Shown here: positions 3,429 through 51,300 of the stretch, piece by piece | Layout of the letters: every line of letters starts with the position of its first letter | How positions within the stretch are numbered: position 1 is the stretch's first letter | IMG/VR virus record: IMGVR_UViG_3300030117_004164 | Coordinates: 7,216 to 71,215 of that record | From: a virus | DNA length: 64,000 nt | Direction: 5' to 3' (one strand) | Position numbers and translations under genes: made by a program | Notes under the pieces: model-generated | What the model was told of the DNA's origin: nothing | The model's database searches: none | What the model saw: the letters and a program-made list of their open reading frames with translations, nothing else

Positions 3429-3608
3429 TTAAGCATTATCCGAAATGCTCTCAATAAATTCAATTTCAGGATTTTTTCTCATATATGCATAAATTTGAGC
3501 AGACTGATAAGGACCGTGACCTTCAATCCACGCTAATCCCTTTCTAGGAGAAAGCCAAACAATATGCATTTCTTTTTCTGCTTTGAGTAAATCTTTCCAA
3601 TTAGTCAT
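3429..3608 (-). CDS. Small hypothetical protein, 59 aa (MTNWKDLLKAEKEMH...)
   Basis: Hand-translated, below ORF-track cutoff; AGGTG SD upstream. Confidence 0.65.
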   Translation of the reverse strand: MTNWKDLLKAEKEMHIVWLSPRKGLAWIEGHGPYQSAQIYAYMRKNPEIEFIESISDNA

Positions 3609-4382
3609 TTTAAAACACCTTTTTCAAAATTTGGGCTGTAATTTGTGAGGCACTAGCAAAATTTTTTTTAATTAATTGATTCTATTTCCAGAATAAGAAA
3701 ACATTGATTTGTTTATTTATATTTAAAAGCACGTTTCTATATAAAATGCATCTATTATAGAGTGTTAAATTAATATATAGAATAACGTGTGTTAAACGCT
3801 CCCTTATTTGTATATGCTTCCATAAAGGCAAACTTAGATATAACAGTGTTTTAATTGGATTATTAATACAAATCAGTTTAAGTTAGCCTAAAGTTCTTTC
3901 AACTGCCTTGATGCGTCATGTAGGCATACACATATTAAGTTCGCGGTTTGCCGTGTAAAAATTCTTTCGCTCAAACAGCAATTTAACCAAATAAGCCTAT
4001 TAATTTTATTAAATTAAAAATTTGGTGCAAAGCATATGGTTGTGGTAATAATGAAATTATACCTTGACTGAAAGGAATCCCCAATTGAGGACATCGCGGT
4101 AAATGTCAGATTCTATTCGCATCTTCCTTTATTTACCGACTCTACCATATGATTGGAATTACGGTAGTGTTTAATTAAAATATCTCAATTAATTTAAGTT
4201 AGGGGCGAAAACTAAAGAAAACCTAATGCTATTCGCATAATTGGCACTAGTGCCATTTCTTTAATTTTCTTCCAAACATATGGTTGCGTAGCAATATATG
4301 TGAATAACATATTGTCCTTATGGGGATTAATGGCGACTAAGAAGAACCTGCGAACAGAACCATCCTTAGTCAGCCATACTAC

Positions 4383-4663
4383 CATATGGTAGTGAAGGCG
4401 TGAAATGATAGATTAAAGAAGGAGATTTATCTCCTCTTTATTCTACTTATTAACGTATTACGCGAATAGCGTAATAAAGTGAATGAGAATAGCCTTAAAC
4501 TACCCTTAATGGGAGTAGTTCACTCGTAAAGGTATCTATTCCCTGAAAGCGGATTAAAAGAAATTTCAACCACCAACACTAATGCGGCGGCTGAAAACGC
4601 CAGACGCTTTTAATCCTATGAAACCATTAACGGCTCCTATCATATGGTAATATAACACTTTGG
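4383..4663 (+). ncRNA. Structured non-coding element, copy A (paralog of 6896-7211)
   Basis: Same order of hairpins and motifs as copy B, with compensatory stem changes; strand chosen from the GAATA loop. Confidence 0.6.
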
Positions 4664-4688
4664 GATTATATTGCCCCGAAGGGCGTAA

Positions 4689-4805
4689 TTAAATGTTTTT
4701 TATGTGATAAGCAGGAATTTCTCCGTCTTTTACACATTTGAGACAATAATATGCTCTACCGCCCCACTTCATTTTTTCTCCACAACCAATTGTTTTACAT
4801 TTCAT
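4689..4805 (-). CDS. 38-aa Zn-finger microprotein (MKCKTIGCGEK...YYCLKC)
   Basis: Hand-translated; GGAGA SD, ATGA overlap with upstream gene. Confidence 0.5.
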   Translation of the reverse strand: MKCKTIGCGEKMKWGGRAYYCLKCVKDGEIPAYHIKNI

Positions 4806-4960
4806 TTTTCTTCATCTCCTTTTATTACCCAATCTGCATAATGGTACATTTCATTTGTTATTTCTTCTTTTGCTTCTTTTCGTCGCATCCGTCTATCTTC
4901 GTTTTTAATTTCTGCTCTTCCGACAAATCGCCCTTTTCCTGTTTTCTTTGTTGAACCCAT
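4802..4960 (-). CDS. 52-aa basic microprotein with Arg-rich patch (DRRMRRKEAK)
   Basis: Hand-translated; follows the stop of 4961..5179 directly; GGAGG SD. Confidence 0.55.
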   Translation of the reverse strand: MGSTKKTGKGRFVGRAEIKNEDRRMRRKEAKEEITNEMYHYADWVIKGDEEK

Positions 4961-5179
4961 TTATTCTTCCTCCATTATACATCTTCCACATCTACAAATA
5001 GGCCAATCTTCTTGACCTCTTCCAGCCAGTAGAATAGAATCCCAATACCTATCAATATTTTCAAAATTCTCTTTAGCCCGAACCATTAAATGTGCAACTA
5101 CTTGACGCATTGGTGATTCAGGGTCTTTAGCAATCCAAGGTTCTAGTTTAGCAAATCTTGTATTCCATTTTTCATTCAT
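4961..5179 (-). CDS. Hypothetical protein with C-terminal CxCxxC
   Basis: ORF track. Confidence 0.6.
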   Translation of the reverse strand: MNEKWNTRFAKLEPWIAKDPESPMRQVVAHLMVRAKENFENIDRYWDSILLAGRGQEDWPICRCGRCIMEEE

Positions 5180-5295
5180 TCCTCTTCCTCCAATTCTCCT
5201 GTTTCTGGATTTAGTTTCATTCCAGCAATAGCCATGAGAATAGCAAAAGCGTGTTCCTCATAAGTTAATCTATCAGTTGATTCCGTTGACGTCAT
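5176..5295 (-). CDS. 39-aa microprotein (MTSTESTDRL...LEEEE)
   Basis: Hand-translated; strong GGAGGT SD; ATGA overlap. Confidence 0.55.
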   Translation of the reverse strand: MTSTESTDRLTYEEHAFAILMAIAGMKLNPETGELEEEE

Positions 5296-5430
5296 TAAAA
5301 TTACCTCCTTTTTCAGAAAAAACTGCCCCACAATTAAAACAGCCAAAATGAACAGTGTATTTCATCCCCCAACGTGGATGATAATTCCACTCTCTATCTA
5401 TTTCAACAATAATCTTACCATTACAACAAC

Positions 5431-5643
5431 TCATGCTTTCACTTCCATTTTTCCGATTTCAATTCTTAGTTTCATTTCATCAAATTCCTCTAAAGCCTCT
5501 TGAGTCAATTCCATCAACTCTTCAATCGTATTAGACTTAATAGATAATTCCTTAACAATCAAAATACCATTTCTATCGTGACCGACTTTCAAGGAATATT
5601 TCTTCTCTTGTATTTCTTCTTTTTTCCAAAACATTTTCATCAA
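5431..5643 (-). CDS. Hypothetical protein
   Basis: ORF track. Confidence 0.55.
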   Translation of the reverse strand: MMKMFWKKEEIQEKKYSLKVGHDRNGILIVKELSIKSNTIEELMELTQEALEEFDEMKLRIEIGKMEVKA

Positions 5644-5746
5644 ATCCTGTTATTGACAATTAACAACTCGACCCACGTTATACCTTGGGGCATACAAAGT
5701 ACCACCATATGGTATGGTTTAAACTTTGGGGTAAACAAGGCCCCAA

Positions 5747-6157
5747 TCAAAATAATTGAGAGAAGCACTTTGCACCGATAATTTGTCCTTTATCGTTTCT
5801 AACAGTTTGACCAACCATTAGAAAATCTGTGCGATTGGTGAATGTTTCGCAAACTGCGCGTGAGACAATATACCACACATTATCACGAATAGGTGGCAAT
5901 TCCATACCGTCATCAGGAATTTTCATTTGAACGGATTTAATTGGAATAACAAACTCATCATCAACTGCGGTGCAACTGCTAACGGGTTCATAATAAATAT
6001 CAAAGTGAAATTCACCCAATGGTCCCCATTCTTCAGAAAGCCGAATAGTGTTACCTGATGGTTGAATGGATAGCAAAACTTCACCATTATCGTCTACCAT
6101 GTTAATTTCGTGGGGTGTCATGTTTACAAATGTTTGATTGTCTTCATAGATTGTCAT
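5747..6157 (-). CDS. Conserved viral hypothetical protein (NxTPH...YIVS...VRN-GQIIG type)
   Basis: Motif pattern I recall from phage/archaeal virus proteins; GGAGA SD. Confidence 0.7.
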   Translation of the reverse strand: MTIYEDNQTFVNMTPHEINMVDDNGEVLLSIQPSGNTIRLSEEWGPLGEFHFDIYYEPVSSCTAVDDEFVIPIKSVQMKIPDDGMELPPIRDNVWYIVSRAVCETFTNRTDFLMVGQTVRNDKGQIIGAKCFSQLF

Positions 6158-6254
6158 ATTATCATCTCCTGTAATATAACAGGTTTTATTTTATTTTACT
6201 TATGAGATTGCAAAGCACATCATATGGTTGTAATGAAACTTTGTGAAATTCAAC

Positions 6255-6705
6255 CACAAAAAAAAAGAAAAGGAAATCCGCAGGTTTGCCAATTAGTGCC
6301 TATTGCATGCTCCAATACTTCTAGTGATTATCGGCCGATTTCACTATTCTTTGTCTGATACAAGTTGCTATCAGTTTCTTGACCTAACTGCTTCATTCCC
6401 AAATGGAATAAGAGGTGTCGATGGGATTACGTCGGATAACGCCTTCGCCATAAGTTTTCATCGTATCTCCTAGAATTCTGTTTCTTGAATTATAGTCTTC
6501 GATTACTTCCAACCACCCCACTAGAGCGTTATTTTCTCTAATGTTCCACTGACCGCGCTACACGGTGATAACCGAAGTTATCTTGTTCTCAGCCATTTGG
6601 CCATCAAACGTTCCTGCTAAGGAATCTCGGAGGTGTGCATTATTCCTGATAAGGGAATTATTCTGCCACGACAATGCTGAAGCCGCTAAGCCCCAGACAA
6701 TAAAA
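6255..6705 (-). ncRNA. Candidate ~450-nt structured ncRNA
   Basis: No credible ORF, raised GC, multiple hairpins including GAUAAC(UUCG)GUUAUC at 6567-6582; oligo-T tract at the 3' end (6258-6270). Confidence 0.55.
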
Positions 6706-6895
6706 CAAAAATGACATTCTATTACTTTCGGGGTTGCAAAGCACACCATATGATTGGAGAAAGGTTTTTAGGTCTGCGTATAGCAGAAATACCGTTAAGA
6801 AAACCCTACAATCTCAAAAATAGGGCCAAGGCCTAACCCTTAAATGCCTAGTGTTTTATGAAATAAACAAGTAATTTCAAAAACACACCCATGAC

Positions 6896-7211
6896 CATAT
6901 GGTACGAGGAGTGCTTAAATAAATTTATGATAGTTTTAAGAGGAAGATGAAATCTTCCCTTAATACTGCCGCTAGGTTTGGTATTATGTGCGAATAGCAT
7001 ATAATAAAGAAAACCGGAATAAATTTATTTAATTTAAACGACGAGTTACCCGAAAAAAAATCCTTTAGGACTATTGAAACTAAAGTATTCGCTAAAAGAC
7101 GCGGAAAATAGAATTAATTACCACCTATTAATAATGCGGCGGCAATCAATTCCATATACATTTTCCGCTCGAAAACATTAATGTTCCCCTATCATATGGT
7201 AGCACTTTGGG
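6896..7211 (+). ncRNA. Structured non-coding element, copy B (paralog of 4383-4663)
   Basis: See copy A. Confidence 0.6.
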
Positions 7212-7295
7212 CTAAATAAAGAGTCCCCAAAATCAAATTTCTCAGAAAATTAATTCCAAGAAAAATGATTTTGAGGGTGAGGGCGACAAATAACC

Positions 7296-7865
7296 TCACT
7301 CTTCTTCTTCAACCTCCGTTGAAGTTTCTGCCACGGGCGCGTGAATTACAGGAATATGCCCGTTCATCTCTCCATCCCAATAAATCGTATCATTAGATGA
7401 TTTCTCACCAGATGCAATCTTTAGGGAATTGCGGTAATAGGTGGTCAAACGGGACTTCATGCTCTTCATCAAAGACTCCGCATATTCGTCAGAATCGGCG
7501 TAAGTGCCGCCACCTGATTTACCGTGCTTCCGAACGATTTCACCATAAAGAGGGTCCGTCGCAAAAAACGCAGAAGCCGCCTCTGCGTATTGAGCAGCAA
7601 TCTGGGTTATTGTTTGACTTACTTCTTCCGGCAGGTCTGATTCCCGACCGCGTGAAATTGGGGAGTTCGGAAGCATCGAGAAAAGATTCGTAATATTATT
7701 CCAGAACTTTTTTCTGTTTGCTACATCTTCACGACCTTGGTCAAGGTTCCAGCGGATAACCGCTTCCATATCACCAATGTCGTTGTTCTCCAAATAAAGA
7801 AGAACTCTGCTTTCATTCTTAGACCACTTTGGGTCATCCATACTATAATCAGCCATTTTTTTCAC
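7296..7865 (-). CDS. Hypothetical protein, paralog of 9341..9844
   Basis: Shared SPxxRGxxSxLP, KHxKSGGGxYA, WDG and APVxxxxxxEEE motifs. Confidence 0.8.
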   Translation of the reverse strand: MKKMADYSMDDPKWSKNESRVLLYLENNDIGDMEAVIRWNLDQGREDVANRKKFWNNITNLFSMLPNSPISRGRESDLPEEVSQTITQIAAQYAEAASAFFATDPLYGEIVRKHGKSGGGTYADSDEYAESLMKSMKSRLTTYYRNSLKIASGEKSSNDTIYWDGEMNGHIPVIHAPVAETSTEVEEEE

Positions 7866-8226
7866 TTCCTAAGTTTTTTTTCTCCTGTGAAGGTTCTTTG
7901 TCGCCCTCATAAAAACGATTTTTGTTTTTTTATACCTTGAGGTGACAAAGTACCACCATATGGTTTTAATTATTATGGCGGTGAAACGTAACAAAGGTGA
8001 AGCCTTTGTCGCCATTGTAAGAAAAACCTTAAGGACAATTTATCGAGTTCAATTCCCAATATGCTATTCGCATATCTTCATTTCCACCCGTAAATATTGC
8101 TTACGCAACCATATGGTAATATTATGAACTTTGGGGATAATAACCCCAAATGTCCCCAAGAGCGGCAACGAATCGCCACTCAAGGGGAGGTTGGTAATCA
8201 ATGGGGGTTTCAGGCTCATTTCTGGC

Positions 8227-8628
8227 CTATTCGTGCTTTCCACGCTTGCGACGAATGATTTCATCAATCGTCTGCTTGGCGAAATCAGCCGCATCGACAA
8301 ATGGTGCAAAAATGCCGTTCTTGCCCTTCTGGAACAAATGACGTTCATAATCAAGATAGAACGCCATCAGGTCGTTAGTCATACCTTCTTGGTCATCTGC
8401 CATATCTGCCAATACTGGGTCAATACCCTTCAATTCATCGTAGAGTGCCTCATGGCCACCCTTCTTCAAAATTTCACGAATTGCGCCCCAAACGAATTTC
8501 TCCATCATAGGGGTTACATCCATGTTGACCAATTCGGTCAATTCGGCTTTTTCACTGTCTGTCATATCGCAATCATCACTTTCAAGAACTTCCTTCAAGC
8601 GATTAATGCGCTGTTGGTTTTTGCTCAT
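8227..8628 (-). CDS. Hypothetical acidic helical protein
   Basis: GGAGGT SD; protein-like composition, unlike the overlapping shadow ORFs. Confidence 0.7.
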   Translation of the reverse strand: MSKNQQRINRLKEVLESDDCDMTDSEKAELTELVNMDVTPMMEKFVWGAIREILKKGGHEALYDELKGIDPVLADMADDQEGMTNDLMAFYLDYERHLFQKGKNGIFAPFVDAADFAKQTIDEIIRRKRGKHE

Positions 8629-9340
8629 ACTTTGCTACCTCCAATATAACGAATTTAGGGGGTGTATAGTTGATACTCCCCAAAGTTACAGTATCGTATA
8701 TACACCCATATGGATGGAACATTCCCAATTGGGGGGTCTTTGCTCGCCATAGGCAGTTAATGCTTATTCAGCATTTTCCCAATTGCCATAGCGAGTAAAT
8801 CCCTATCTCCATATGGTTGTAATTAATTCATTTTAATTAATTGTATCTTTCGTGTGGAGGGTGGCTCTTTTGTGCGACTCGCAACTAACCCATATAAACG
8901 ACGTACTGTAAGCCACCAAAGAATATTCATCTGAAGAAATGAGGTCGTTCTTTTAGGTATATTCCAATTGACAATATACCATATACTATACCATATAGTA
9001 TAGAGTATAAATATAGAATATGTAATATTCATATTAGATAAACGCCCACGCATACCATTCTTTAAAATGGATTTAGAAGTAATGTTTAGGGATTTATGAT
9101 ACCTAATTGGCTATGATGAGCAGGTCACGCATGACTTTGCTTAAAATGAAGGCGAACTAGGTTCCGGTTTATTGGTAACATATCCATGAAAATTGCCACA
9201 ATGCAATATATATCATATGTATCACCGTGATACCTATTTCATAGGATTTATATGCTAAACACCTAATGTCAAGTCGCGCCGAGGCGTATGGGCAGTTTAG
9301 AATGATTATGGATGGATAAATTGCTTAAAATAAAACAAAG

Positions 9341-9844
9341 GTGAAAGAAATGGCTATGGAAGGATGGCAAGCACGAACTGAAGAAGTAGCGGAATTTATC
9401 GCAGTAGATGGATTTGACGCACAATTAAGACAAGTTGTTCAGTTCCAAATTAATTTTGGAAATGAAAACACAGACCAGCAAGAGCGAGTTTGGGACTCAA
9501 TTAAGTCCATGATTCGTGGATTAGACGGTAGCCCCGTTCGACGTGGAAAGAAGAGTAATCTTCCTGCAAGCGTAAATGTTGCTATTGCACAGATTACCGG
9601 AGAAGTTGCTTCATTGGCGGCTGATTGGTATGATGGCAATTCGCTATTACAGGCTGTATTGCTGAAACACGCAAAGTCTGGTGGCGGTGCATATGCAAAT
9701 GGTGAAGAGTATGGTGCTTCACTTTCAACAAAGGTTGGTTCACGACTAAAGAAGATGTATTCCGAGGGAACTTGGGATGGAACTACTGATGGTCTTTCAG
9801 CACCAGCACCAGTTGAAACCGCGTCTTATGACGAAGAAGAGTAA
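9341..9844 (+). CDS. Hypothetical protein, paralog of 7296..7865
   Basis: Motif sharing; GGTGA SD. Confidence 0.8.
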   Translation: MKEMAMEGWQARTEEVAEFIAVDGFDAQLRQVVQFQINFGNENTDQQERVWDSIKSMIRGLDGSPVRRGKKSNLPASVNVAIAQITGEVASLAADWYDGNSLLQAVLLKHAKSGGGAYANGEEYGASLSTKVGSRLKKMYSEGTWDGTTDGLSAPAPVETASYDEEE

Positions 9845-10384: not shown

Positions 10385-10888
10385 TTGAAAATGACAAGAA
10401 AACATTGGATAACAAAGAAAGAGATAAAGGAACTGTATGGTTTGAGCGATAATAAAATTGCTCTAATGAAGAAATTGAATTTGGTTAGTACCAAACTAGG
10501 TGTTAATGAAGGTAAAGGGCGTAAGCCGCTATTGTATAAGAAATCAATGGTTAATCTTATAAAAGATATGACACCAATCCAGTTAAATGAATTGGGTGAT
10601 ATTGTTGAAGATACAAAAGAGCAAGTTGAAGATTTTATCAAGAGTGATATTGAAGCAGTTGTTGAAGAAGATTGTAAACATAAATATTCATATGAACAAT
10701 CAGTAAATCATCCATCACATTATAACAAGACTCAACTTGAAGTAATTGATGCGATTGACATTTGGGGTTTGGACTTTAGTGAAGGTAATGTAATTAAATA
10801 CCTTCTACGGGCCAAACACAAGAACAATGCTAGAGAGGATTTAGAAAAGGCTCTTTGGTATGTTCAAAGACTTCTAGATAATCTATGA
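10385..10888 (+). CDS. DUF3310 (SaV-like) domain protein with N-terminal extension
   Basis: VNHPSHY...EVIDAI...GNVIKYLLRAKHK...EDLEKALWY. Confidence 0.8.
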   Translation: MKMTRKHWITKKEIKELYGLSDNKIALMKKLNLVSTKLGVNEGKGRKPLLYKKSMVNLIKDMTPIQLNELGDIVEDTKEQVEDFIKSDIEAVVEEDCKHKYSYEQSVNHPSHYNKTQLEVIDAIDIWGLDFSEGNVIKYLLRAKHKNNAREDLEKALWYVQRLLDNL

Positions 10889-11078: not shown

Positions 11079-11260
11079 GGGTCATTGGCGCAGTTAGGTA
11101 GCGCAACGGGCTTTTATGAGGTTTGCCGAATAATAAGAAGAAAATCTCTTCACAATCGGAATAGTAGTTTTATGGGTTATCTTCTATCCCTTTCATGTTT
11201 CTACGAACTTCTTTCCTCAAAGATACCCGTTGGTCAAGGGTTCGAATCCCTTATGACCCG
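11079..11260 (+). tRNA. tRNA-Lys(UUU) with 108-nt intron at 37/38 (11117-11224)
   Basis: GGGTCAT/ATGACCC acceptor, GCGC D-stem, ACGGG/CCCGT anticodon stem, TTCGAAT T-loop, canonical bulge-helix-bulge. Confidence 0.92.
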
Positions 11261-11583: not shown

Positions 11584-11670
11584 AGCGGGATATCCGAGTA
11601 TGGCCAAAGGAGCAGGACTTAAGATTCTGTGCAAATTGCTTCGTGGGTTCAAATCCCACTCCCGCTACCA
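11584..11670 (+). tRNA. tRNA-Leu(UAA), CCA encoded
   Basis: AGCGGGA/TCCCGCT acceptor, anticodon loop CT-TAA-GA, variable arm, TTCAAAT T-loop, ACCA end. Confidence 0.9.
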
Positions 11671-20663: not shown

Positions 20664-21632
20664 ATGAAAGAAGATATAATTAAATGTTCTGAATGTAATT
20701 CGAGAGAATTAAGTGTAGATGCTAATTCAGGTGAAACTTATTGTGAAGAATGTGGATTAGTATTAGAAGAAAATATATTTGAAGAAACAAGTGCGGGAAG
20801 AGAAAAAGATAGTGACCCTCAAAGTGATAGAACACATAATCCTAATAGAGTAGGATTTACTTTAGGAAGTATGGTTGGAACCACTAATGTAGATGGCAGT
20901 AAAGATAGGTCACAAACGGGTAGAACATTACGAAGATTGAATCAACGTGTGTCTATGAAAAGTCATGAAAAAAATAGAAGCAAAGGGTTTGCATTAGTAA
21001 CTATGTTAGTGAGTGAATTTGTTTCTTCTCCGGCATTTAGGGAACAAGCGGTATGGAATTACAAAAGAATACATGATAATCAAGTGTTAAAGGGTATGTC
21101 TTTAGAGACTAGAGCCGCCGCAGTAGTCTATTATACTTTTAAGGAAAATGGTATCTCTAGGACTATTGAGGAAATTTGTAGAAAAAATATGTCTCACCCT
21201 AGACAAGTAGCAAAATGTGCTAGAAGAATAGCAACTTTCTTTAGGAAACCTTGGATTCTTTCCCAAAAAAATATTGACCAAGATGTTGAAAAGTATTGTT
21301 CACAGTTAGGGGTGAATAGGTTATTTACTACATCAGCAATTAAACTAACATCTTTAATGCACAATATTGCTGAACAAAGATATATGAATGTAAACTCTGG
21401 TTTTACTGCTGCCTGTATTTATTTGACAGGAATTTTACTAACCCCAACTGTTGCCCCTAGAACTCAAATGGAAATTTCTAACGCGTTAAATATTACTGAA
21501 GTTACGCTTAGAACAAATCTAAGAAAGGCACTAAAGATGGTTGATAGAAGAAAAGAAAATTTACCTAATATGAGTTATGATGAATTTATGGAAGGAGTGT
21601 ATAGAATATGTCCAAAGGAAGAAGAAGAGTGA
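20664..21632 (+). CDS. tfb: Transcription factor B (TFIIB family)
   Basis: N-terminal Zn ribbon CSEC...GETYCEECGLVL; two cyclin repeats (AAAVVY, RTIEEI; AACIYL, RTQMEIS...ITEVTLR). Confidence 0.9.
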   Translation: MKEDIIKCSECNSRELSVDANSGETYCEECGLVLEENIFEETSAGREKDSDPQSDRTHNPNRVGFTLGSMVGTTNVDGSKDRSQTGRTLRRLNQRVSMKSHEKNRSKGFALVTMLVSEFVSSPAFREQAVWNYKRIHDNQVLKGMSLETRAAAVVYYTFKENGISRTIEEICRKNMSHPRQVAKCARRIATFFRKPWILSQKNIDQDVEKYCSQLGVNRLFTTSAIKLTSLMHNIAEQRYMNVNSGFTAACIYLTGILLTPTVAPRTQMEISNALNITEVTLRTNLRKALKMVDRRKENLPNMSYDEFMEGVYRICPKEEEE

Positions 21633-34421: not shown

Positions 34422-34723
34422 TGGGAAAAGTAAAAGAAGTCTATATGATGTATTATCAAGGTAATATGTCAATAGATAAAATAGCAAAAGTGTTAAATAT
34501 CGAGAAACAATCGGTTGCTAACTTAGTACATAGTATTTATTTTGGAGATGAAGAAGAATGAGATATGGTAGAATTGTAACATTTAAAATTGAATCAAATA
34601 ATCTGGGAGATTTAAAGGCTTTTATTTCAGGCCTAAAAGGATTTGCAGATGGTAATGCGATTGTAAGTAGAACTAATATTGCATATGTAACTGAAGAACC
34701 TTGTGTTGAAAGGAGAGATTGAA

Positions 34724-36391
34724 ATGATTATTAGTTATACGGATGATGGAAATATTCATGTTAGGTATAGAGAATCGAATAACTTGAGAGTAGAAAGAGT
34801 GTATAATGATTTTAAACCTTATTTTTTCATTGATGAGAAGGCTAGGGAAATTGATTTCTATAAAATTAATATGAAAGTTAATGGTGAAAATGTATCACTA
34901 GAATTACCCTATGCTTATGAACATGGTGATTGGAAAAACCTTCTAGGAAAACCTTTGAAGAAAGTAATTGTTCAGAAACATTCTGATATTAGAACCGCCA
35001 AGAAATCATGGAATAGAACATATGAAGCAGATGTACCTTTTCATTATAGATATTGTGTTGACAAACTAGAAAAATTACATGAATATGATTTACGTAAATG
35101 GTATTGGGATATGGAATGGCTTAATGGCGACCCTGATGAGGGAGATGCGATTACTGCTATTGTAGTATATGATAACTATGATGATAAGTACACCGTTTAT
35201 ACTTGGAACCCTTATCTTAATGAAGATAAATTTCCTGAATATAATAACAATAGTGTAATTTTTACTTTTCATTCTGAATTTGAAATGCTTAGGGGATTTA
35301 TGAGAAAGATTCAGGATTGTGACCCTGATATGCTCATATCATGGTTCGGTTCAAAATTCGATTTGCCTAAGTTAATTCATAGGCTTCATTATAGAGGCAT
35401 TGACCCAAGAGGACTTTCACCATATAATGAAGTAAAGGGTGTATATGCTAACAAGATAACTGATGCAGTTGATAATTATTCTCCGGTAGCACAACCTATA
35501 CGGGGGCGTATTACCTTGAATTTAGACTTAGCATTTGAGCGTCAATGGAATGATTCTCAACGTGGGACTCTACCTTCATTAGCACTTGATTATGCGGCAG
35601 AGGTAGTATTGGGTGCAAAGAAACTAGTATCAGAAAAATTTCCAGATAAGAATGAATTCTTTAGAAGGGGTTGGTTAGAAGATACTGAAAGGTATTTAGA
35701 ATATGCTAGAGTAGACGTAGAATTACTTCATCGTATAGATGATGAGATGGGACTATCTGAAGGTATTTTATCACTACAAAGGTTACTAGTTGCACCTTTT
35801 GATGCTTGTTTTTATGCCTCTAACATGGGGAGTATATACTTTATGCGTAATGCTTGGTGGAAGGCCCCAACAGGTGATAAATCAAAAGATAGAGAAGATT
35901 ATGATGGTGCATTGATTTACGACCCATTGAGTGAAGAAACAAATGGATTACATATAGGGGTGGCCGCTTTTGATTATGCCGGACTATACCCATCAATGAT
36001 GTTAGCCCGTAACATTTCATGGGAAACATTGACCCATTCAAAGACAGAATTTGCTGTAAATTTGAAAACTCCGCGTGACTTTTCTCCTGTTGTAGATAAG
36101 GATATGGTGTATTTCAAAACAGATAAACTAGGACTATTACCACAATCCGTCTTAGAGTTGAAAACATTAAGAGATGAATACAAACGCCGAAGAAATGAGG
36201 CAGAGGATAAAAGAGAATATACTAAGTGGGAAAATAGTCAAATGGCTGTAAAAAGATTAATGGCTTCATTTTATGGAATTATTGCGTATCAAGGTTTTGG
36301 TTGGGCTAATGTAACTTTAGCGGCGGCTATTACTGCAAGCGCAAGAGAAGCGATTAGAGAAGCCGCATTTAAAGTGAGGGAGTTAGAATGA
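34724..36391 (+). CDS. polB: Family B DNA polymerase, N-terminal part (3'-5' exonuclease and motifs A, B)
   Basis: WDME, FDLP, YARVD, FDYAGLYPS, KRLMASFYG. Confidence 0.92.
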   Translation: MIISYTDDGNIHVRYRESNNLRVERVYNDFKPYFFIDEKAREIDFYKINMKVNGENVSLELPYAYEHGDWKNLLGKPLKKVIVQKHSDIRTAKKSWNRTYEADVPFHYRYCVDKLEKLHEYDLRKWYWDMEWLNGDPDEGDAITAIVVYDNYDDKYTVYTWNPYLNEDKFPEYNNNSVIFTFHSEFEMLRGFMRKIQDCDPDMLISWFGSKFDLPKLIHRLHYRGIDPRGLSPYNEVKGVYANKITDAVDNYSPVAQPIRGRITLNLDLAFERQWNDSQRGTLPSLALDYAAEVVLGAKKLVSEKFPDKNEFFRRGWLEDTERYLEYARVDVELLHRIDDEMGLSEGILSLQRLLVAPFDACFYASNMGSIYFMRNAWWKAPTGDKSKDREDYDGALIYDPLSEETNGLHIGVAAFDYAGLYPSMMLARNISWETLTHSKTEFAVNLKTPRDFSPVVDKDMVYFKTDKLGLLPQSVLELKTLRDEYKRRRNEAEDKREYTKWENSQMAVKRLMASFYGIIAYQGFGWANVTLAAAITASAREAIREAAFKVRELE

Positions 36392-36654: not shown

Positions 36655-36902
36655 GATTAGAAGGAAGAAAGTGTAGTTTTAAAACTTGTAAAACAAGAAT
36701 ACTATCTAACACAGTATTTTTAGGTAATGAGCCTAAATGGATGGTTAAAGGTACAATGAAAGGGTATTGTATGGAATGTTCTTTGAGAGAATATTCTAAT
36801 CTTATTCCAGTAGTAAATGCTCATCCTGATGATAAGTTTGAATTTTGGGCTATGATAAATGGAGAACTTACCCCTTTAGTACCAAAGGAGGAAGAAGAAT
36901 GA
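36651..36902 (+). CDS. Small Zn-binding protein inserted between PolB halves
   Basis: CSFKTC...CMEC; ATGA coupling. Confidence 0.6.
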   Translation: MRLEGRKCSFKTCKTRILSNTVFLGNEPKWMVKGTMKGYCMECSLREYSNLIPVVNAHPDDKFEFWAMINGELTPLVPKEEEE

Positions 36903-37690
36903 AAGTAGTTTATGCACATACAGATTCAATCTATGTTCCTATTGAGAACGTAGAAAAAGCAAAAGAAATTTGCACAACGTTGAACAATCATATGCGAGAA
37001 CATTTTCCTAATCTTTTGGGATTAGAAACTCATCCTGTAACTTTAGAGTTTGAAAAGTATTATGAAGGTTTAGGAGTTGGTGTGAAGAAGAATAGAAATG
37101 CTGGTTATATATCTTGGAAAGATGGTAAGTATTTAGATGAACACCAATTTGTTGTTACAGGTTTCTCTACTAAAAGAATTAGTGAGAATAAGATTGGAAA
37201 AGAATTTCAAAGTGATTTGCTTAAGATGTGGGCAGGTCAAAAAACTAAATACGATATTGTTGAGTTTTGTAAACAAAGGTATAACGATGTTAAACACGGT
37301 AGAGTAACCTTAGAAGATATTGTTAAAAGAGGTAGAGTTAGAAGGGAACTTGAAGAATATAAATCTATTGCTGGTGGAATTGCTGGGGTTTGTTATTATA
37401 ATGAACACATTAATCCTGATGACCCAATAGATGATTCATTTTTCTATATTGAATGTAATATTGTCAACGGACCAAGTAGAATGATTTTTCCTAATGGTGC
37501 AGAAAGACCTGTAAAATATGTATCAGTGAAAGAAATGAAAGAGTTTAATGAAGATTTTGAAATAGATTGGGGGGCATATGCTCAAAAATCTATTGTACAA
37601 AAAGCCAAACCCATTTTCCTAGCGATGGGTTGGGATATGAAAGAATTTATTGTTGACGAAAATCAACAAAGTTTAGGGAAGTGGTTATAA
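36899..37690 (+). CDS. polB: Family B DNA polymerase, C-terminal part (motif C, thumb)
   Basis: VVYAHTDSIY, LEFEK, KKNRNAG; terminal PIP box QQSLGKWL. Confidence 0.88.
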   Translation: MKVVYAHTDSIYVPIENVEKAKEICTTLNNHMREHFPNLLGLETHPVTLEFEKYYEGLGVGVKKNRNAGYISWKDGKYLDEHQFVVTGFSTKRISENKIGKEFQSDLLKMWAGQKTKYDIVEFCKQRYNDVKHGRVTLEDIVKRGRVRRELEEYKSIAGGIAGVCYYNEHINPDDPIDDSFFYIECNIVNGPSRMIFPNGAERPVKYVSVKEMKEFNEDFEIDWGAYAQKSIVQKAKPIFLAMGWDMKEFIVDENQQSLGKWL

Positions 37691-44932: not shown

Positions 44933-45330
44933 TATTCCACCTCTATTGTTAATGTGATTTCTAATTCATCTGATGAAGCAAATGTCCCTAATTCATCAAA
45001 ATTTACTCTAGCCAACATTGTTGTTTCAGCAGAATAAGATGTTGTGGTTCTTAATTCATCAAAATTTTCATCATCAGGCGTTGTGGCACTAAAAATTCCA
45101 AACTCTCTTACAGTGTTTCCGTTTAATTCTGAGCCTGTAAATGTTGCAGTAAAATCTAAAACATTCGCTGATGACTCTGAAACTGTAATAGATTTATTTG
45201 CACCAAGAATTGGAACATCTAGTGTGTTTGAATTTGGATTTGGGGCATTACCGCCAACTCCTACATTTGCAGTATTATAGAACTCTTTCAAAAAAAGAGC
45301 AATTTTTCTTTTTGCTGTTTCTGTTATCAT
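44932..45330 (-). CDS. Tail/baseplate structural protein
   Basis: VREFGIF...MLARVNF pattern; context. Confidence 0.55.
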   Translation of the reverse strand: MITETAKRKIALFLKEFYNTANVGVGGNAPNPNSNTLDVPILGANKSITVSESSANVLDFTATFTGSELNGNTVREFGIFSATTPDDENFDELRTTTSYSAETTMLARVNFDELGTFASSDELEITLTIEVE

Positions 45331-48300
45331 AAGTCTTTCTCCAATAAAGTTACTGTTGTAGACGCTGAACCCGTAAAGCCCATAGTAGCCGTACCGATAT
45401 TAATGGGAGTTGTGAATCCTATAAATGTTCCCGTTGCCGTGGTAGTTGTTTTCTTAATTAGTAGTTTAAGTGGTTTAATTTTAATAGTGTCTAATAACTC
45501 GTTAGTTATTGTATTGCCCTTAAACTTGTCATTTCTTAAGAAGGCGGTAGTCAATTTATTTTGGGCTAATAAGTCTGCAATTCTATGTTCCATACCTTTA
45601 GAATACGAGCCTAAGTTCATTCTTATCTTTCCTAAAGATGAATGATAAATTTCTAATACCTTAAATGGTTGTCTAGGAATACCTTCATTAACTAATTCAA
45701 CTGTTACAATATCTCCTGCTTTAACATACTCTAATCCTGTAATTCCTGTTTCAACTTGAATAGTTTTTTCAGCGGAAGAATGTATTTGTAATAATTCTTT
45801 GGCTTTTTCATTTACATCTGATAATGTAGTCAAAGCGTTATCAAATTCTTCTAAAGATTTTTTACCTATTTTTTTGATGCTTTTAGGGTCTCTAGCAGTA
45901 GATTTAATTCCTCTACCATAAACAGTAACGTGGTTGTAAAATTCAAAAGCGGAGTCAGTTTTTTTAACAGAAATTAAATTTATATCTGTTGAAGTATCGG
46001 ATATAACAACAGGTGTAAATCTAATATTTACATCTTCTTTCTTTTCCAAAACAACTGTATCTAAGTCTACAAATAATCTTTTTTGTTTTAATTTTGCTAA
46101 ATAATCTGCGGCACTAAATACATCTACTCCTTGGAAATTTGGAGCAAAGTATTTGGGGTATTCTAATGTGTCTCTAGTGTAAGTAAACTTATTAGTCTCC
46201 AAAACGTCGTTAAGTATATCTTCTGTTTCAGAACATATTGTTAATGTTGAACCTATTTTTGCAGTTTGAACATCTTGCAGATTTGATGCTTTTGATGTTA
46301 CTATTGTAAAGGGTGTACCCATAGAAACTGCTCCTACCATTTTTGGTAAATCTTTGTTAAATGTTACTGTAAAGTCTTTAAATCCTGAACTTCTTGGGCT
46401 AGAAAACGTTAATGTTCTAGTAATAGTTTCATTACCATCAGTAAGGACAAACTCATAATCTCCATCTTTTAGTGGCTGAGAATCTGTTCCGAATAATTTT
46501 GTTGGGTCTCTTGGAATTAAATAGTTTGAATCAGACCTGTTATCAGGGTCAATTATAACATACATTGATAAAACACCTTCGTTAAAATCATATTTACCAT
46601 AATTACTAGAACCCTCACCTAATCTTGAAACTGTTAAAGGTTCTGAAATTTTTGCACCTGCACCCCCACCTGATGCTGATAATTCTGCTCTTTGTATAAC
46701 AGCATAATTTGGAATATTACTATACATTTTTGCTTGGAAAGGCATTTTAGTAGTCTTAGAACTTAAATTATATAATTTGAATTTTTTAGGCGTAGTAGGA
46801 TATGTACAAACTTCTGCTGGTCGCATAACTCTAAATGATGTACTATCTAAATCAAAAGAAGATATTCCTGGTGGTGCGTCAATTAATATATGATGGGTAA
46901 TACCTGATGAATTTAAAGTATCTTTCTTTTTAGTGTGAGAAATAATATAACAAATATCTTCAGGACAAACCTCTGCTGAACTAAATGGACCACTACTTAC
47001 CCCCACTCTTACATTTGAATCTGCTAAAGACGTTGCAGTAGTAATTTCATCTGTTATAACTCCTCTTGAAGATACTAAATAATAACCTGTTAAATTAGGA
47101 ACAAAATCTAACCAATGATTTACTTCCCAAGAATTACTACTACTTTGAACTTCAGCAGGATGAGCATTGTTTATTGATATTAATAAAGTATTTCTTTTTG
47201 TGCCACCAATTATTAATGTGTCATCAGGAAATATACCTGATAATCCAGTACAACCAGTAAATGTCGTACTAGTTTTTCCTGTGTAAGTAAAAGTTCTTCC
47301 TCCTACTTCAGCATCACCAGAGGAAGCGAAATCTGCTGTACTATCAACATGAATTGTTCCACCAAAAGAAGAAGTATTTGTTGTACCATTAGTTTTAGTG
47401 CTTACAATATCTTGATTAAAATGTTCATCCATTATTCTTCCGCAATTACTTCCTGTTTGAGCAATAGATGAACCGGAACCTAAATGTAGAATTGGTTTAA
47501 AGACAAAGTATGCTCCGCTTCCTTTGTATTTGTTTGTAGAAAATGCTGCATCTGCTTCCAAATCAAAATGTGCGAAGCCGTATTCAGATTCTAAATATAA
47601 ACAGTTGTGTTCAGAATTATCACCAAATGAAGAGGTTTTTTTACCATCATTTTTATTTCTAATTTTTTTATCAACAGATATATTCATTCCTGGCGCAACG
47701 TCTATTTTTTCTGGTTCAGGTGTTGTTTTATATCCTGATAAAATTACTACTCTATTATAGTACCAAGGATTTACTTCATTATTAGTAAATGTGTGACTAG
47801 ATAATTGACCCTCAGACATTTTTCTTAACATAAATGATGGGTGGTATTTGCCAATTGTAGAACTAAACATTGAGTCATATTTTCTAAGAGTTTCCCCATT
47901 AGTGGCAGAAGTGTCAAACTCTAGTAAAGAAAGTTTATCATTTTCTACATCATCAACTCGACCTAAGAAATCATCATCAGAAAATACACCATCACCAATT
48001 CTAAAAATATCTTTAAGATTTACTGAACCTGCTCTAGTAACATGAGAACTTGTGCTAGAAGCAATAGTTTCTCCAGAATTAGTGTTATGTATAGTTAAAG
48101 TTTTCCAAGGCAATTCAATATCTTCTCCTGCTAAAATTTGAGATTTTTGGAAATTGCCTAGTTGCCTTACTGCTCCATTTCTACCAAAAACTTTGCCTTG
48201 TGTTAAATTGAGTAATCTATTTGTATCTGACCCTGCACCTTGTTTTCCAGCGTTACCCATAGTTGTGAAACTTTGGAAATTTTTACTACCACCACCACCA

Positions 48301-51300
48301 ATACCCATTTCTACTTTGTATATTGGACCTAAATATCTTTCCCCATCTCTATTATATTCTCCATCAGCATTCAAAGTAATTTTTCCAGAAGAGGGTGTAT
48401 TTAATCCTGCTGAAGTATGAATTCTCCCAATTAATGTTCCATTGTATGCGTAAATATAGTCACCATTTGCTAAATTGTTAAAATCGCCTGTAACAGATAA
48501 TACTGTTGCACTATCCCAAGCAGTAATATAGGGGTCTGTTGAAGAACCCGTAACTTTCTCAATTACGCTATAAGTAGTATATTTGAAACTTCCACTTCCA
48601 GAATCCTCTGCTGGTGGAATCTCAGGGTCTAATAAATTAAAATGGGAGTCATAAGTAACTTCAATTAATCTCATCATATTATATCTACGAAGTTCACTTA
48701 AAGTTTTATTTGATGATTCAATAGTTTGAGTTTCGTAATTATCATCTTTTAAAACTTCTCTAAATGCACTACCTTTATATTTATCAGGAACTTCTGAACT
48801 TATTTCTTGTGTACCTTTAGATTTCAATAGCAAGTTATAATCAGTAATAGTTCTAGTCCCATATAATAAATTGTTTTTTCTATTCGCACAGTCTGGATAT
48901 AAATCAGATTGCCCAAATAAATAATACTTTACAGTCTTAGGGTCTAAAATTTCCCAATGGTCTTTTGCTCTCTTAATAGCATTTGTTTTCCAACCTATAT
49001 GTTGACCAACTGTTCCTGAATGGTCACCTCCTGATTCACTAAATGCCCAATCTCCTTGTATTCCGTTACTATGTGCGCTACCACCTGATAGACTAAATTT
49101 AGGATAAACTTCTATTAATGCCTGATTATTTACTCCCCATTGACCTTCCATTAATGTTTCCCCATCTGCTACTGCCGCTCTAATTGTATCGTATAAAACA
49201 ATACTAGTAGAACTGACTGTTTTAATCATTCCTAATAATTCGCCATTAGCATTATATACAAAATCACCAACACTGAATTTACTTGTAGCATCTGCGTCGG
49301 TTGTAATTGTAGCATTAGCGTGTTTAGCCAATGCCCCATCAACTGTAATACCTGAACTGTTTGCAAAAATATATTTATCATAATCTTCAAAATTACTACC
49401 TCTCAATGGCAAGGCTTCTCTCATTTCAGGAGGAATTTGTTTTATTTTTTCATTGACTTCATCATTATCTTTTAATGTGTCTATTGTCATATCTGTTCCT
49501 GTAATTAGTATGGGTTTAGTTTTATACGCTCTACCAAAGCCTAATAAGTTACCTGTATCTTCTGCATAGGTATCTACCGATTCTGTTCTGTTACTAATAT
49601 CATCCATTGAATGTCTTTTTGCTTTGTATAAACTTCCTGCTGGATTTTTATGTATATCGTAAACTCTAAATTGATACCCACCAAATCTATTTAAAAATGT
49701 AGTATTACCATAATCATTTGTGCTAGTATTATCATCCTTAATATAGTGATTAAACATTATACTATTTCCAGCAGGAGATATTACTTGGCTCATTAGTTGT
49801 AATACGGCACCATTATCAATCCCATGAGTATTTAAGAAACTTATGTTATGGTTTTTTCTATTAGCAATTGTATAAATTTTATCTCCAGCATTAATTGTAG
49901 AAATGCCTTCCTCATTAGGATTTCTGTCTAACACTATAAATTGATTACCACTACTATGTTTAAATTTATTTATAACTTTACCGTATGTTACCCCATCTGC
50001 ATTGTATATAAATTCATTTTCTGGAATATTAGCAAAAGTACCTAAAACTTGTTGGGCATCATAAGATAATATAGAAGTGTCATCAGCAGCAAAAGTTATT
50101 CCAGAATCTGTTAAACTTTCAGGTTTAGTGTATCTACCATCCATATCTGCTCTTGCTAAAACTATTGGAGAAATAGGTGCAAGAGTTATAAGACCTTTAC
50201 CATCATCACTAGATACAGAAGTAACAGCAAAATTTGGAACTGAAGAAGGAGTATCAAATGTTGCTCTATATGTTGTACCACCAATACTACCTTCTAATGC
50301 ACCCATAAATGCAGAATCTCCTTCTTTTCTTGCTAAAATATTAGTAGAAATTGCTCTAGGATTTTTAATAGGATACCCTACTGCATCCCTATGAATCTCA
50401 TTATCTGAAGAATCTCTATAAATACTTGTAGTTAAAAGGCTTGAACTCTCCACCCCATCCACAATTTTATTACCAGCAGTAAAAAATAACCCTTTTCCTG
50501 CTGTACTATCTAAAGAAGTTGGTGTTAATGGTGAGTATTTTGATGAACTCATAGCCTTTGAAAATGAATATATTTTACCATTAGTTGTAGGTTTTGAAAC
50601 TCTAATGGTTGTAGAAGAAGTTGAAGTTAACATTCCATCTAATAATTTTACACCTTGGGGGTGGCTAGTATCATCAACACTTAAAACTTCTCCAATTAAA
50701 TCTCCATCAGTTGTCCATAAATAATCTCCGGCTTCTAAAATTGTACCACTAACGGTTTCTAATGAATAATTAAACGCTTCATCAGAGGTAGCAGAAACAA
50801 TAACAGTAGTACCATCATAACTAGGCAAATATGGGCCAACAGTAGAATAAATAATATCTTCAGAATGTTTATAGTTTTTATTTACTATTGGGCCAAGTAA
50901 TTTACCTATTTCATTTCTACCCTTTATTCTGTATTTGTATTGACCATCTTCAATGTAATCTTCTATGAATTCTGCATAGCCGGAAAACACTTTCTTTTCT
51001 AGAACATATTCTCCAATATAGTAAGCCAAATAGTTTTCTGTTGTAGAACTCTCATCTAAGTATAATTGTGTGCGAGGGGATTGTAGTTTAACAAATGAAT
51101 TTTTTTGGTCACCATAAGATACTGCAAACCTTTTTCCGTTATATGGGCCACCTAGTAAACAAATTTGAGTTTTGTATAATTTACTAGAAGAAGGAGATAT
51201 TGAAGCGTTGCCTACTTTTAAAGTAACTAATGAATCGTTAACAGCAGTAATACTAGTACCAGAATAATCAGCAATAGTATCAATATTAAATTCCACCATT

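Follow-up and report, generated by a model that had tools for sequence, protein, structure and literature searches.

The closest described counterparts of the element reported here are hairpins that serve proteins as handles or signals. In RNA, CRISPR-repeat hairpins are recognized by Cas6 and boxB by N, and integron attC sites and repetitive extragenic palindromic (REP) elements are precedents for hairpin signals at the level of DNA. We analysed a window (the whole stretch of DNA under study, 64,000 nucleotides (nt) long) that corresponds to bases 7216-71215 of the 71,215-base IMG/VR virus record IMGVR_UViG_3300030117_004164 and that, judged by its genes, comes from a group-B-like magrovirus, a tailed virus of marine archaea. 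To our knowledge, no magrovirus has been brought into culture, and the group counts among the most abundant viruses that infect ocean archaea. The window contains a 4.8-kb array of cassettes (4033-8816) jointed by palindromes, and a small hairpin with a GAATA loop is the shared signature of the gene-less cassettes of this array. No mention of these elements was found in the excerpted magrovirus literature that was searched, supplements aside.

One GAATA hairpin in each short interval of the array

The array is made of 13 intervals between 14 CATATGR sites, mostly ACCATATGGT, with palindromes of the CCATATGG type. The sites are located at 4036, 4148, 4280, 4385, 4643, 5708, 6223, 6749, 6898, 7195, 7959, 8112, 8709 and 8812. 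CATATGR showed 48 strand matches in the window, compared to 25.4 expected and with none of 100 shuffles reaching 48, and 26 of these 48 matches were found in the array. The initial annotation had assigned one hairpin to each non-coding module, and this rule held throughout: all 8 intervals of at most 300 nt contained exactly one hairpin, and the 5 longer intervals contained none. Four of these longer intervals carry minus-strand protein open reading frames (ORFs), the fifth being the 526-nt interval 6223-6749. The gene-less folded units occupy about 1.3 kb in the window virus and more in its relative G001.

The seven hairpins already listed in the initial annotation were all recovered at their positions and on their strands, together with an eighth that was absent from it, at 4296-4312, giving four hairpins on each strand. 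On the minus strand, the hairpin at 4108-4124 (unit 4036-4148) has 5 Watson-Crick pairs and 1 mismatch and caps a longer stem, and the one at 4226-4238 (unit 4148-4280) has 4 Watson-Crick pairs with the core TGC-GAATA-GCA. The hairpin at 8059-8075 has 6 pairs and belongs to the unit 7959-8112, which begins with the palindrome and a GCGTAAGCAA mini-hairpin, and that at 8759-8775 (unit 8709-8812) has 6 pairs with a closing T-A and caps a long stem. On the plus strand, the additional hairpin at 4296-4312 (unit 4280-4385) exhibits 6 pairs, also with a closing T-A, the hairpin at 4456-4476 (258-nt unit 4385-4643) 8 pairs, and the hairpin at 6982-7006 (297-nt unit 6898-7195) 9 pairs plus 1 G.U. The hairpin at 6773-6787 (5 pairs; unit 6749-6898) is a variant with a GTATA loop, and a near-identical unit is present in the relative G006.

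The frequency of GAATA hairpins in the array was well above chance, both against the DNA outside it and against shuffled sequence. Between 4030 and 8820 we counted 6 GAATA hairpins with at least 5 pairs; in 1000 dinucleotide-preserving shuffles the count averaged 0.26 and peaked at 3. Outside the array, the remaining 66.4 kb of the 71.2-kb record contained 7 GAATA hairpins, 6 of them needing a G.U pair or a mismatch and 1 having an all-A/T stem. GAATA, with its complement TATTC, was the commonest 5-nt loop among the array hairpins.

Stem covariation and loop conservation

The alignment of 34 hairpins from 5 related records showed that the stems vary under a near-constant loop, as had been noted from the window, and that they covary. 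The loop is GAATA in 33 hairpins and GTATA in one. The closing pair is C-G in 25 hairpins, T-A in 8 and T.G in one, and the second pair from the loop is G-C in 28 and G.U in 4. The top of the stem is near-fixed (T-G-C ... G-C-A); the lower stem changes freely yet stays paired. Two-sided changes were found at all 7 stem pairs, in 45 cells compared to 11.8 in shuffles, a value that none of 500 shuffles attained, and when the partner strand was slid by 1-3 columns just 21-47% of the cells could pair. The figure of 89% paired cells in the alignment is partly built in, the rows having been picked for pairing; the independent support is the enrichment in the array and the variety of stems under a single loop.

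Judged on sequence, the hairpin belongs to the GNRNA pentaloop class, with G at loop position 1, a purine at position 3, A at position 5 and a Watson-Crick closing pair. Solved U-GAAUA-G and C-GUAUA-G pentaloops are listed in this fold family, in which the 4th loop base is extruded (PMC9830547). The 4th base is T in 34 of the 34 hairpins. An invariant extruded base together with two near-fixed top pairs suggests base-specific reading, and it is mainly for the invariance of this outward-turned base and of the top two stem pairs that a specific reader would be expected.

The same loop might instead serve the architecture of an RNA with no protein reader, as a GNRA-like folding nucleus or tertiary contact that docks, for instance, on the helix of the terminal palindromes. 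GNRA-type loops often make long-range contacts (PMC12550061), the loop and the pairing-capable CCATATGG ends are common to all units, and a mini-hairpin with a GUAA tetraloop sits on the same TGC/GCA stem beside many palindromes. However, an extruded 4th base would be free to vary under such a role, and docking needs no near-fixed top stem pairs, which makes this explanation unlikely.

The likeness to boxB proposed by the initial annotation holds for the loop, which fits the GNRNA pattern, and fails for membership of the lambda/P22 boxB-nut system, for which boxA, an N-type protein and the host all disagree. In a boxB-like antitermination system, a viral Arg-rich peptide would bind the nascent hairpin and modify the polymerase. 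Besides the fit of the loop, a 52-residue ORF of the array with an Arg-rich stretch, 4802-4960 (-), speaks for such a system. However, matches to a boxA-like consensus numbered 31 in the window against 32.1 expected, with 1 in the array, and the hairpins lie in gene-less units and in both orientations, not before terminators on a common transcript. We know of no lambda-type N/Nus system in an archaeal host. The Arg-rich ORF was rejected as the reader, having no homologue in G001, where 11 core motif matches fall in the array, and only a weak one in G005 (E 0.02). No N-like protein was found, and the small ORFs of the array had no match in Pfam. The suggested antitermination site was dropped on these grounds (boxA-like motifs not enriched, no conserved Arg-rich protein, archaeal host), and we regard this mechanism as very improbable.

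A coding origin of the conserved loop was also considered. In all 34 hairpins the loop is followed by G or A, so that GAATA(G/A) can be read as a Glu codon followed by TAG or TAA, the end of a micro-ORF wrapped in the hairpin. A few copies, such as 8059-8075 and its orthologue in G001, do read as 5-residue ORFs behind a Shine-Dalgarno-like motif. This motif is nevertheless present in only 7 of the 34 cases, the 'peptides' are alike in their last two residues alone, and in 13 hairpins the open frame runs up to an upstream stop without a start codon (ATG, GTG or TTG). The micro-ORF was rejected, its probability being close to nil.

Distribution in related viruses

Pattern scans detected the same architecture in other uncultured virus contigs, each with 5-7 kb dense with CCATATGG. 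The GAATA hairpin was carried by G001, G005, G006 and the metagenome locus L114, which are the closest relatives by protein identity, and it was absent from the palindrome arrays of the more distant G002, G003 and G004. In G000, G001 and G005 together, at least one hairpin was found in 24 of 27 intervals of at most 300 nt and in 0 of 12 intervals longer than 500 nt, which are gene-bearing. Over whole records, matches to the core motif GYGAATARY fell in the array in 11 of 14 cases for G001 and 9 of 12 for G005, compared to 0 of 4 for G002 and 0 of 8 for G004. The hairpin is thus conserved and, as far as these comparisons reach, specific to the gene-less cassettes of one magrovirus clade.

A scan of viral contigs for the hairpin together with the palindrome returned G001 and G005 alone among 34 loci, and the scan of metagenome contigs returned the new relative L114, again G000 and G005, and five loci without tblastx kinship. 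The search for related loci with a single protein found none. A different pentaloop, RTTAA, was also looked for, and hairpins with this loop were not enriched in any of the 15 loci scanned. A 3.3-kb metagenome contig (L109) exhibited the same four hairpin sequences as window positions 6773-8775, and it likely represents this part of the window in an independent assembly. In three metagenome scaffolds with a GC content of about 50% (L108, L110 and L113), a lone CCATATGG lies 21 nt ahead of a GAATA hairpin of 7 bp that is identical in all three; L108, the scaffold compared, showed no protein similarity to the magrovirus set, and this hairpin may be due either to chance or to a separate lineage.

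Folds and mobility of the gene-less units

Two families of units were recognized. Family 1 has 5 copies in 3 viruses: two in the window (4385-4643 and 6898-7195), another two in G001 and a single one in L114. Of the 53 pairs in the consensus of this family, 19 show compensatory changes. The fold includes a long hairpin on the 5' side, the GAATA hairpin and, on the 3' side, a nested domain whose long helix is built from wholly different letters in the two subfamilies. Among the further family-1 copies proposed by a pattern scan, those of G001 were real and those of 8 other loci were attributed to chance. Family 2 comprises 4280-4385 and 7959-8112 with copies in G001 and L114. Its units open with the palindrome and a small hairpin whose loop is GUAA or GUA; the GAATA hairpin comes next, then a motif of the CCTTAAGG type, and finally a terminal hairpin that covaries. 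Searches against Rfam gave nothing for window positions 3500-9300 at E values up to 5.

The units were found in different surroundings in close relatives. The unit 6749-6898 has a different neighbour in G006, and the family-2 unit lies upstream of a 189-residue gene on the strand of this gene in the window, downstream of its orthologue on the gene's strand in G001, and downstream of it but inverted in L114. The initial annotation had offered module inversion as one source of the mixed orientations, and this is borne out by the same unit family, beside the same gene, in opposite orientation in G001 and L114. That one unit family adjoins the same gene in three arrangements shows that the units are autonomous, and a unit able to work wherever and whichever way round it sits must either be expressed from signals of its own or function as DNA.

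Several other small elements were observed in these arrays. The mini-hairpin TTGC-GTA(A)-GCAA, with a GUAA tetraloop or a GUA triloop, lies directly beside the palindrome in many gene-less units, at one of their two ends (window 4283-4293 and 8099-8109, L043 2279-2289, and several places in L040) and occurs also in distant relatives without the GAATA hairpin. L040, from G002, has gene-less units of about 100 nt with a tiny reverse-strand ORF (4823-4921, 4914-5015 and 2163-2260), one of which translates as TTG-Phe-Asn-Glu-Glu-Asp-Glu-stop. The only Rfam match in the arrays of the relatives was manA (RF01745) at L043 4137-4291 in G005, with 19.5 bits against a gathering threshold of 55.2 and an E value of 0.61; it sits in a gene-bearing interval and has no counterpart in the window.

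Polarity, working strand and a possible signal in DNA

With the hairpins oriented so that the loop reads GAATA, the nearest CATATG was found 5' of the loop, 14-90 nt off, in 26 of 29 hairpins, and in the 3 exceptions the CATATG was formed by the hairpin's own stem or abutted it. Divergent hairpin pairs often flank one single palindrome. On the GAATA strand, G.U outnumbered A.C 7 to 1 among the six innermost pairs and 11 to 2 when seven pairs were counted. A was more frequent than T on this strand in 22 of 26 units, with 11 of 13 on each genomic strand, and still in 19 of 25 units when the loop letters were subtracted; the sense strands of the virus protein genes have the same A-over-T bias. 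As the G.U excess and the A-over-T bias agree, one strand would be the working strand, resembling a transcribed sense strand, although the marks are of modest size and the units lack mutual independence.

A second class of conserved loops was found in the protein-coding cassettes, namely arms with a CTTTG(G) loop on covarying stems of 4-8 bp and TGC/GCA type, with 19 distinct arms in 7 loci. These arms directly abut the palindromes at both ends of the cassettes, for example at 5708, 7195, 7959 and 8112. The same G.U test applied to the 19 arms gave 3 G.U against 1 A.C, the non-Watson-Crick pairs being too few.

Part of this evidence fits a signal acting in DNA, in which the hairpin, single-stranded or extruded beside the palindromic joint, would be read by a recombination, repair or replication enzyme and would mark or drive the gain, loss, movement and flipping of gene-less units. 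The polarity of the hairpin is fixed relative to the palindrome where units are exchanged, units were relocated (6749-6898 in G006) and flipped (family 2 in G001 and L114) between close relatives, the CTTTG arms abut the same palindromes upstream of TATA-like boxes and are probably not transcribed with the gene, and the virus encodes ERCC4-HhH (helix-hairpin-helix) and Cas4-like nucleases. On the other side, no integrase, transposase or HUH enzyme was detected among the 89 ORFs scanned, many of which have no family. A one-strand G.T excess with an A-over-T polarity is unexpected for a cruciform, where both strands extrude, and a fold of 260-300 nt with 53 pairs, 19 of them compensatory, is unusual for a DNA site. 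The model of a lagging strand from a single origin fails, with 4 of the 8 hairpins on each strand; this layout was rejected, which weakens the idea of a single-stranded DNA signal. We regard a DNA-level signal as possible but doubtful, and as the main rival of the RNA reading set out below.

A proposed recognition hairpin of non-coding RNAs

We favour, with a probability of about 0.4, the reading in which the GAATA hairpin is a single-stranded, probably RNA, recognition hairpin common to autonomous structured non-coding cassettes. The hairpin, with a stem of 5-10 bp, would most likely fold in single-stranded form, as RNA copied in the sense that reads GAATA. It would lie close to the 5' end, the one nearer the palindrome, of small transcripts (about 100-300 nt) that are autonomous, structured and non-coding. 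It would offer a common handle to one trans-acting reader, most likely a protein, and this reader would give very different RNAs a shared fate in stability, processing or assembly. Transcription, the RNA rather than the DNA form, and the existence and action of the reader are what we infer from the sequence. The initial annotation had suggested a repeated protein-binding hairpin. The element is indeed repeated and is maintained through its structure, and the invariance of the loop hints at a reader that acts in trans.

Several observations weigh against this reading. No reader protein was recognized, and none of the 89 ORFs scanned against Pfam showed an RNA-binding domain. The G.U excess is modest and partly inherited among paralogues, and the searches favoured G.U-tolerant stems; in family 1 the ratio of G.U to A.C is only 12 to 6, on a structure that was predicted from the GAATA strand, and the folding energy is about equal for both strands. 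Neither a promoter nor a terminator was found in a fixed position in the gene-less units, where the distance of TATA-like stretches varies, and T-runs and A-runs 3' of the GAATA hairpin are about equally common. Finally, the CTTTG arm at the 5' end of the genes is located upstream of the TATA-like box and for this reason is probably absent from the mRNA, a point in favour of palindrome-adjacent hairpins acting at the level of DNA. With respect to expression signals, a common promoter motif of the AAGGTATAA type was tried for the gene-less units and rejected, being seen solely at protein cassettes and at one unit end, and sigma-70-like sites were not enriched (22 compared to 22.6 expected).

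Candidates for the reader were looked for by phyletic profile. About 20 ORFs were shared with G001 and G005 and missing from both G002 and G004; one of them is a winged helix-turn-helix-DUF3310 ORF beside the array (10385-10888). This pattern is confounded by kinship.

A precedent for a protein handle of this kind was found in CRISPR repeats. One genome for each of 185,579 species was scanned for three GCGAATAGC cores at CRISPR spacing, which yielded at least 120 loci. Most were tandem or dispersed repeats, and at least five were true CRISPR arrays of one family, all on bacterial genome contigs (L123/L159, which are one array, L126, L139, L203 and L219). The repeat, 36 nt long, forms a 7-bp stem that covaries between species and is topped by GC-GAATA-GC, and the cas genes beside the one array examined, L126, are of type I-G (Cas4g/Cas1g, Csb2 and Cas8g1/Csx17). 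The GC-GAATA-GC hairpin of type I-G repeats thus provides a precedent for the handle.

It also raises the alternative that the hairpins are solitary repeat mimics, or RNA anti-CRISPRs (Racrs), that titrate a Cas6-type enzyme of the host, which would be a form of the decoy suggested in the initial annotation. The type I-G repeats of Proteobacteria carry the same top, the hairpin 8059-8075 and its flanks resemble the layout of an I-G repeat, the type I-F repeat hairpin has a GUAUA loop (PMC9830547), and Racrs are known in phages (PMC10651486). The match to I-G repeats is limited to the top of the hairpin. The stems differ within one virus, so that a single sequence-specific Cas6 would be unable to bind all of them, the orthologous unit of L114 and the other hairpins lack the repeat-like 3' flank, and the matching arrays are bacterial whereas the host is archaeal. 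In a further array, L199, the loop is flipped to TATTC in the repeat orientation, and the likeness may therefore be a convergence. A CRISPR mimic appears improbable on this balance.

If the recognition hairpin does act in RNA, the units would represent new families of viral non-coding RNAs that share one handle for a protein, and would open a route into early-region control of an uncultured archaeal virus; if it acts in DNA, the hairpin would belong to an undescribed cassette-shuffling signal. A broader and tentative proposal, in which we place less confidence than in the recognition hairpin itself, is that magroviruses maintain a library of non-coding cassettes, mobile and autonomous, which act as RNA (or as folded DNA) and carry an invariant pentaloop tag proper to each clade, recognized by a co-evolving reader. 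Were it true, structured RNAs would be shuffled and handled through a modular 'barcode' system, described in none of the papers searched, as excerpted.

Protein-coding cassettes and gene content of the virus

The protein-coding cassettes of the array are all on the minus strand, bear CTTTG-loop arms and lack the GAATA hairpin. The first region (4643-6223) contains a cluster of small ORFs (4689-5643) and the ORF 5747-6157, with the arms at the flanking palindromes. The cassette 7195-7959 contains the ORF 7296-7865 and a TATA-like box, and the cassette 8112-8709 the ORF 8227-8628. A 19-nt inverted repeat with 95% complementarity (7278-7296 and 7891-7909) was observed just outside the ORF 7296-7865 at both ends, and the 5' and 3' untranslated ends of its mRNA may pair. 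The acidic product of 7296-7865 (-) has a paralogue encoded divergently beside the array at 9341-9844 (+); the two have a K-S-G-G-G motif and a C-terminal E-E-E in common, and G001 and G005 have orthologues of the pair, as does G004 with more distant ones. An AT-rich spacer (8816-9340) with short direct and inverted repeats separates the array from the divergent genes on the plus strand. The minimum of the cumulative GC skew coincides with this spacer, which makes it a candidate replication origin or control region.

The assignment of the window to an archaeal tailed virus is based on its gene set. A family-B DNA polymerase is encoded in two pieces (34703-36391 and 36845-37690), together with an RFC-type clamp loader, an ATP-dependent ligase, a class II ribonucleotide reductase, a Cpn60-family chaperonin, the ERCC4-HhH and Cas4-like nucleases already mentioned, and a TFIIB/TFB homologue with a zinc ribbon and a cyclin repeat (20664-21632, +). 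This TFIIB homologue may direct the virus's own promoter recognition, which bears on the expression of the cassettes. Two tRNAs were found, tRNA-Leu (11584-11670) and a second one. For the region 11079-11260 (+) beside tRNA-Leu, Rfam gave a tRNA match of 53 bits over 182 nt, covering the whole 71-position model, and ARAGORN made no call; this region is probably an intron-bearing tRNA. tRNA-Leu and tRNA-Arg have been reported from group-B magroviruses. The structural block includes an ORF of 2613 residues (45327-53168, -) without a Pfam family. Comparison with a collection of cultured phages gave no match at the DNA level, and at the protein level the tail-tube protein had no match and PolB alone was matched, with 26% identity. 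The affiliation with group B follows from the agreement of this gene set with the list for group B/B1 magroviruses, which includes ribonucleotide reductase (group B), a split polymerase (B1), GroEL and two tRNAs (Philosof et al. 2017, PMC5434244).

Comparison with known systems

Lambdoid boxB resembles the GAATA hairpin in its short stem, its conserved GNRNA pentaloop and its repetition within one viral genome. It differs in that the hairpin of the magrovirus array has no boxA partner, no conserved N-like protein and an archaeal host, occurs in 8-11 copies per genome in gene-less mobile units of both orientations, and has an invariant 4th loop base. The Cas6-bound repeats of type I-F and I-G CRISPR systems and the Racrs (PMC10651486) share with it the loop class, the I-G top and, on the reading favoured here, the principle of a common protein handle on many RNAs, whereas the magrovirus units have no repeat-spacer periodicity and no conserved flanks, and combine variable stems with a large additional structure.

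The two remaining comparisons concern arrays of cassettes. The PeSL (promoter-early stem-loop) cassettes of T4-type phages are likewise repeated stem-loop elements in a hyperplastic early region, in which recombination shuffles modules, but they consist of sigma-70 promoters and terminator hairpins that flank protein ORFs (PMC2839356). The array described here is jointed by an invariant palindrome, its units with a GAATA hairpin contain no ORFs, and the host is archaeal. Integron attC sites are similar in their arrangement in an array of mobile cassettes and their one apparently functional strand, and the GAATA hairpin, like them, would be recognized by structure rather than by sequence. Unlike in integrons, no integrase was found among the 89 ORFs, the cassettes occur in both orientations, and the hairpin lies inside the unit and not at the crossover, with an invariant loop and no sign of the extrahelical-base marks in a long imperfect palindrome.

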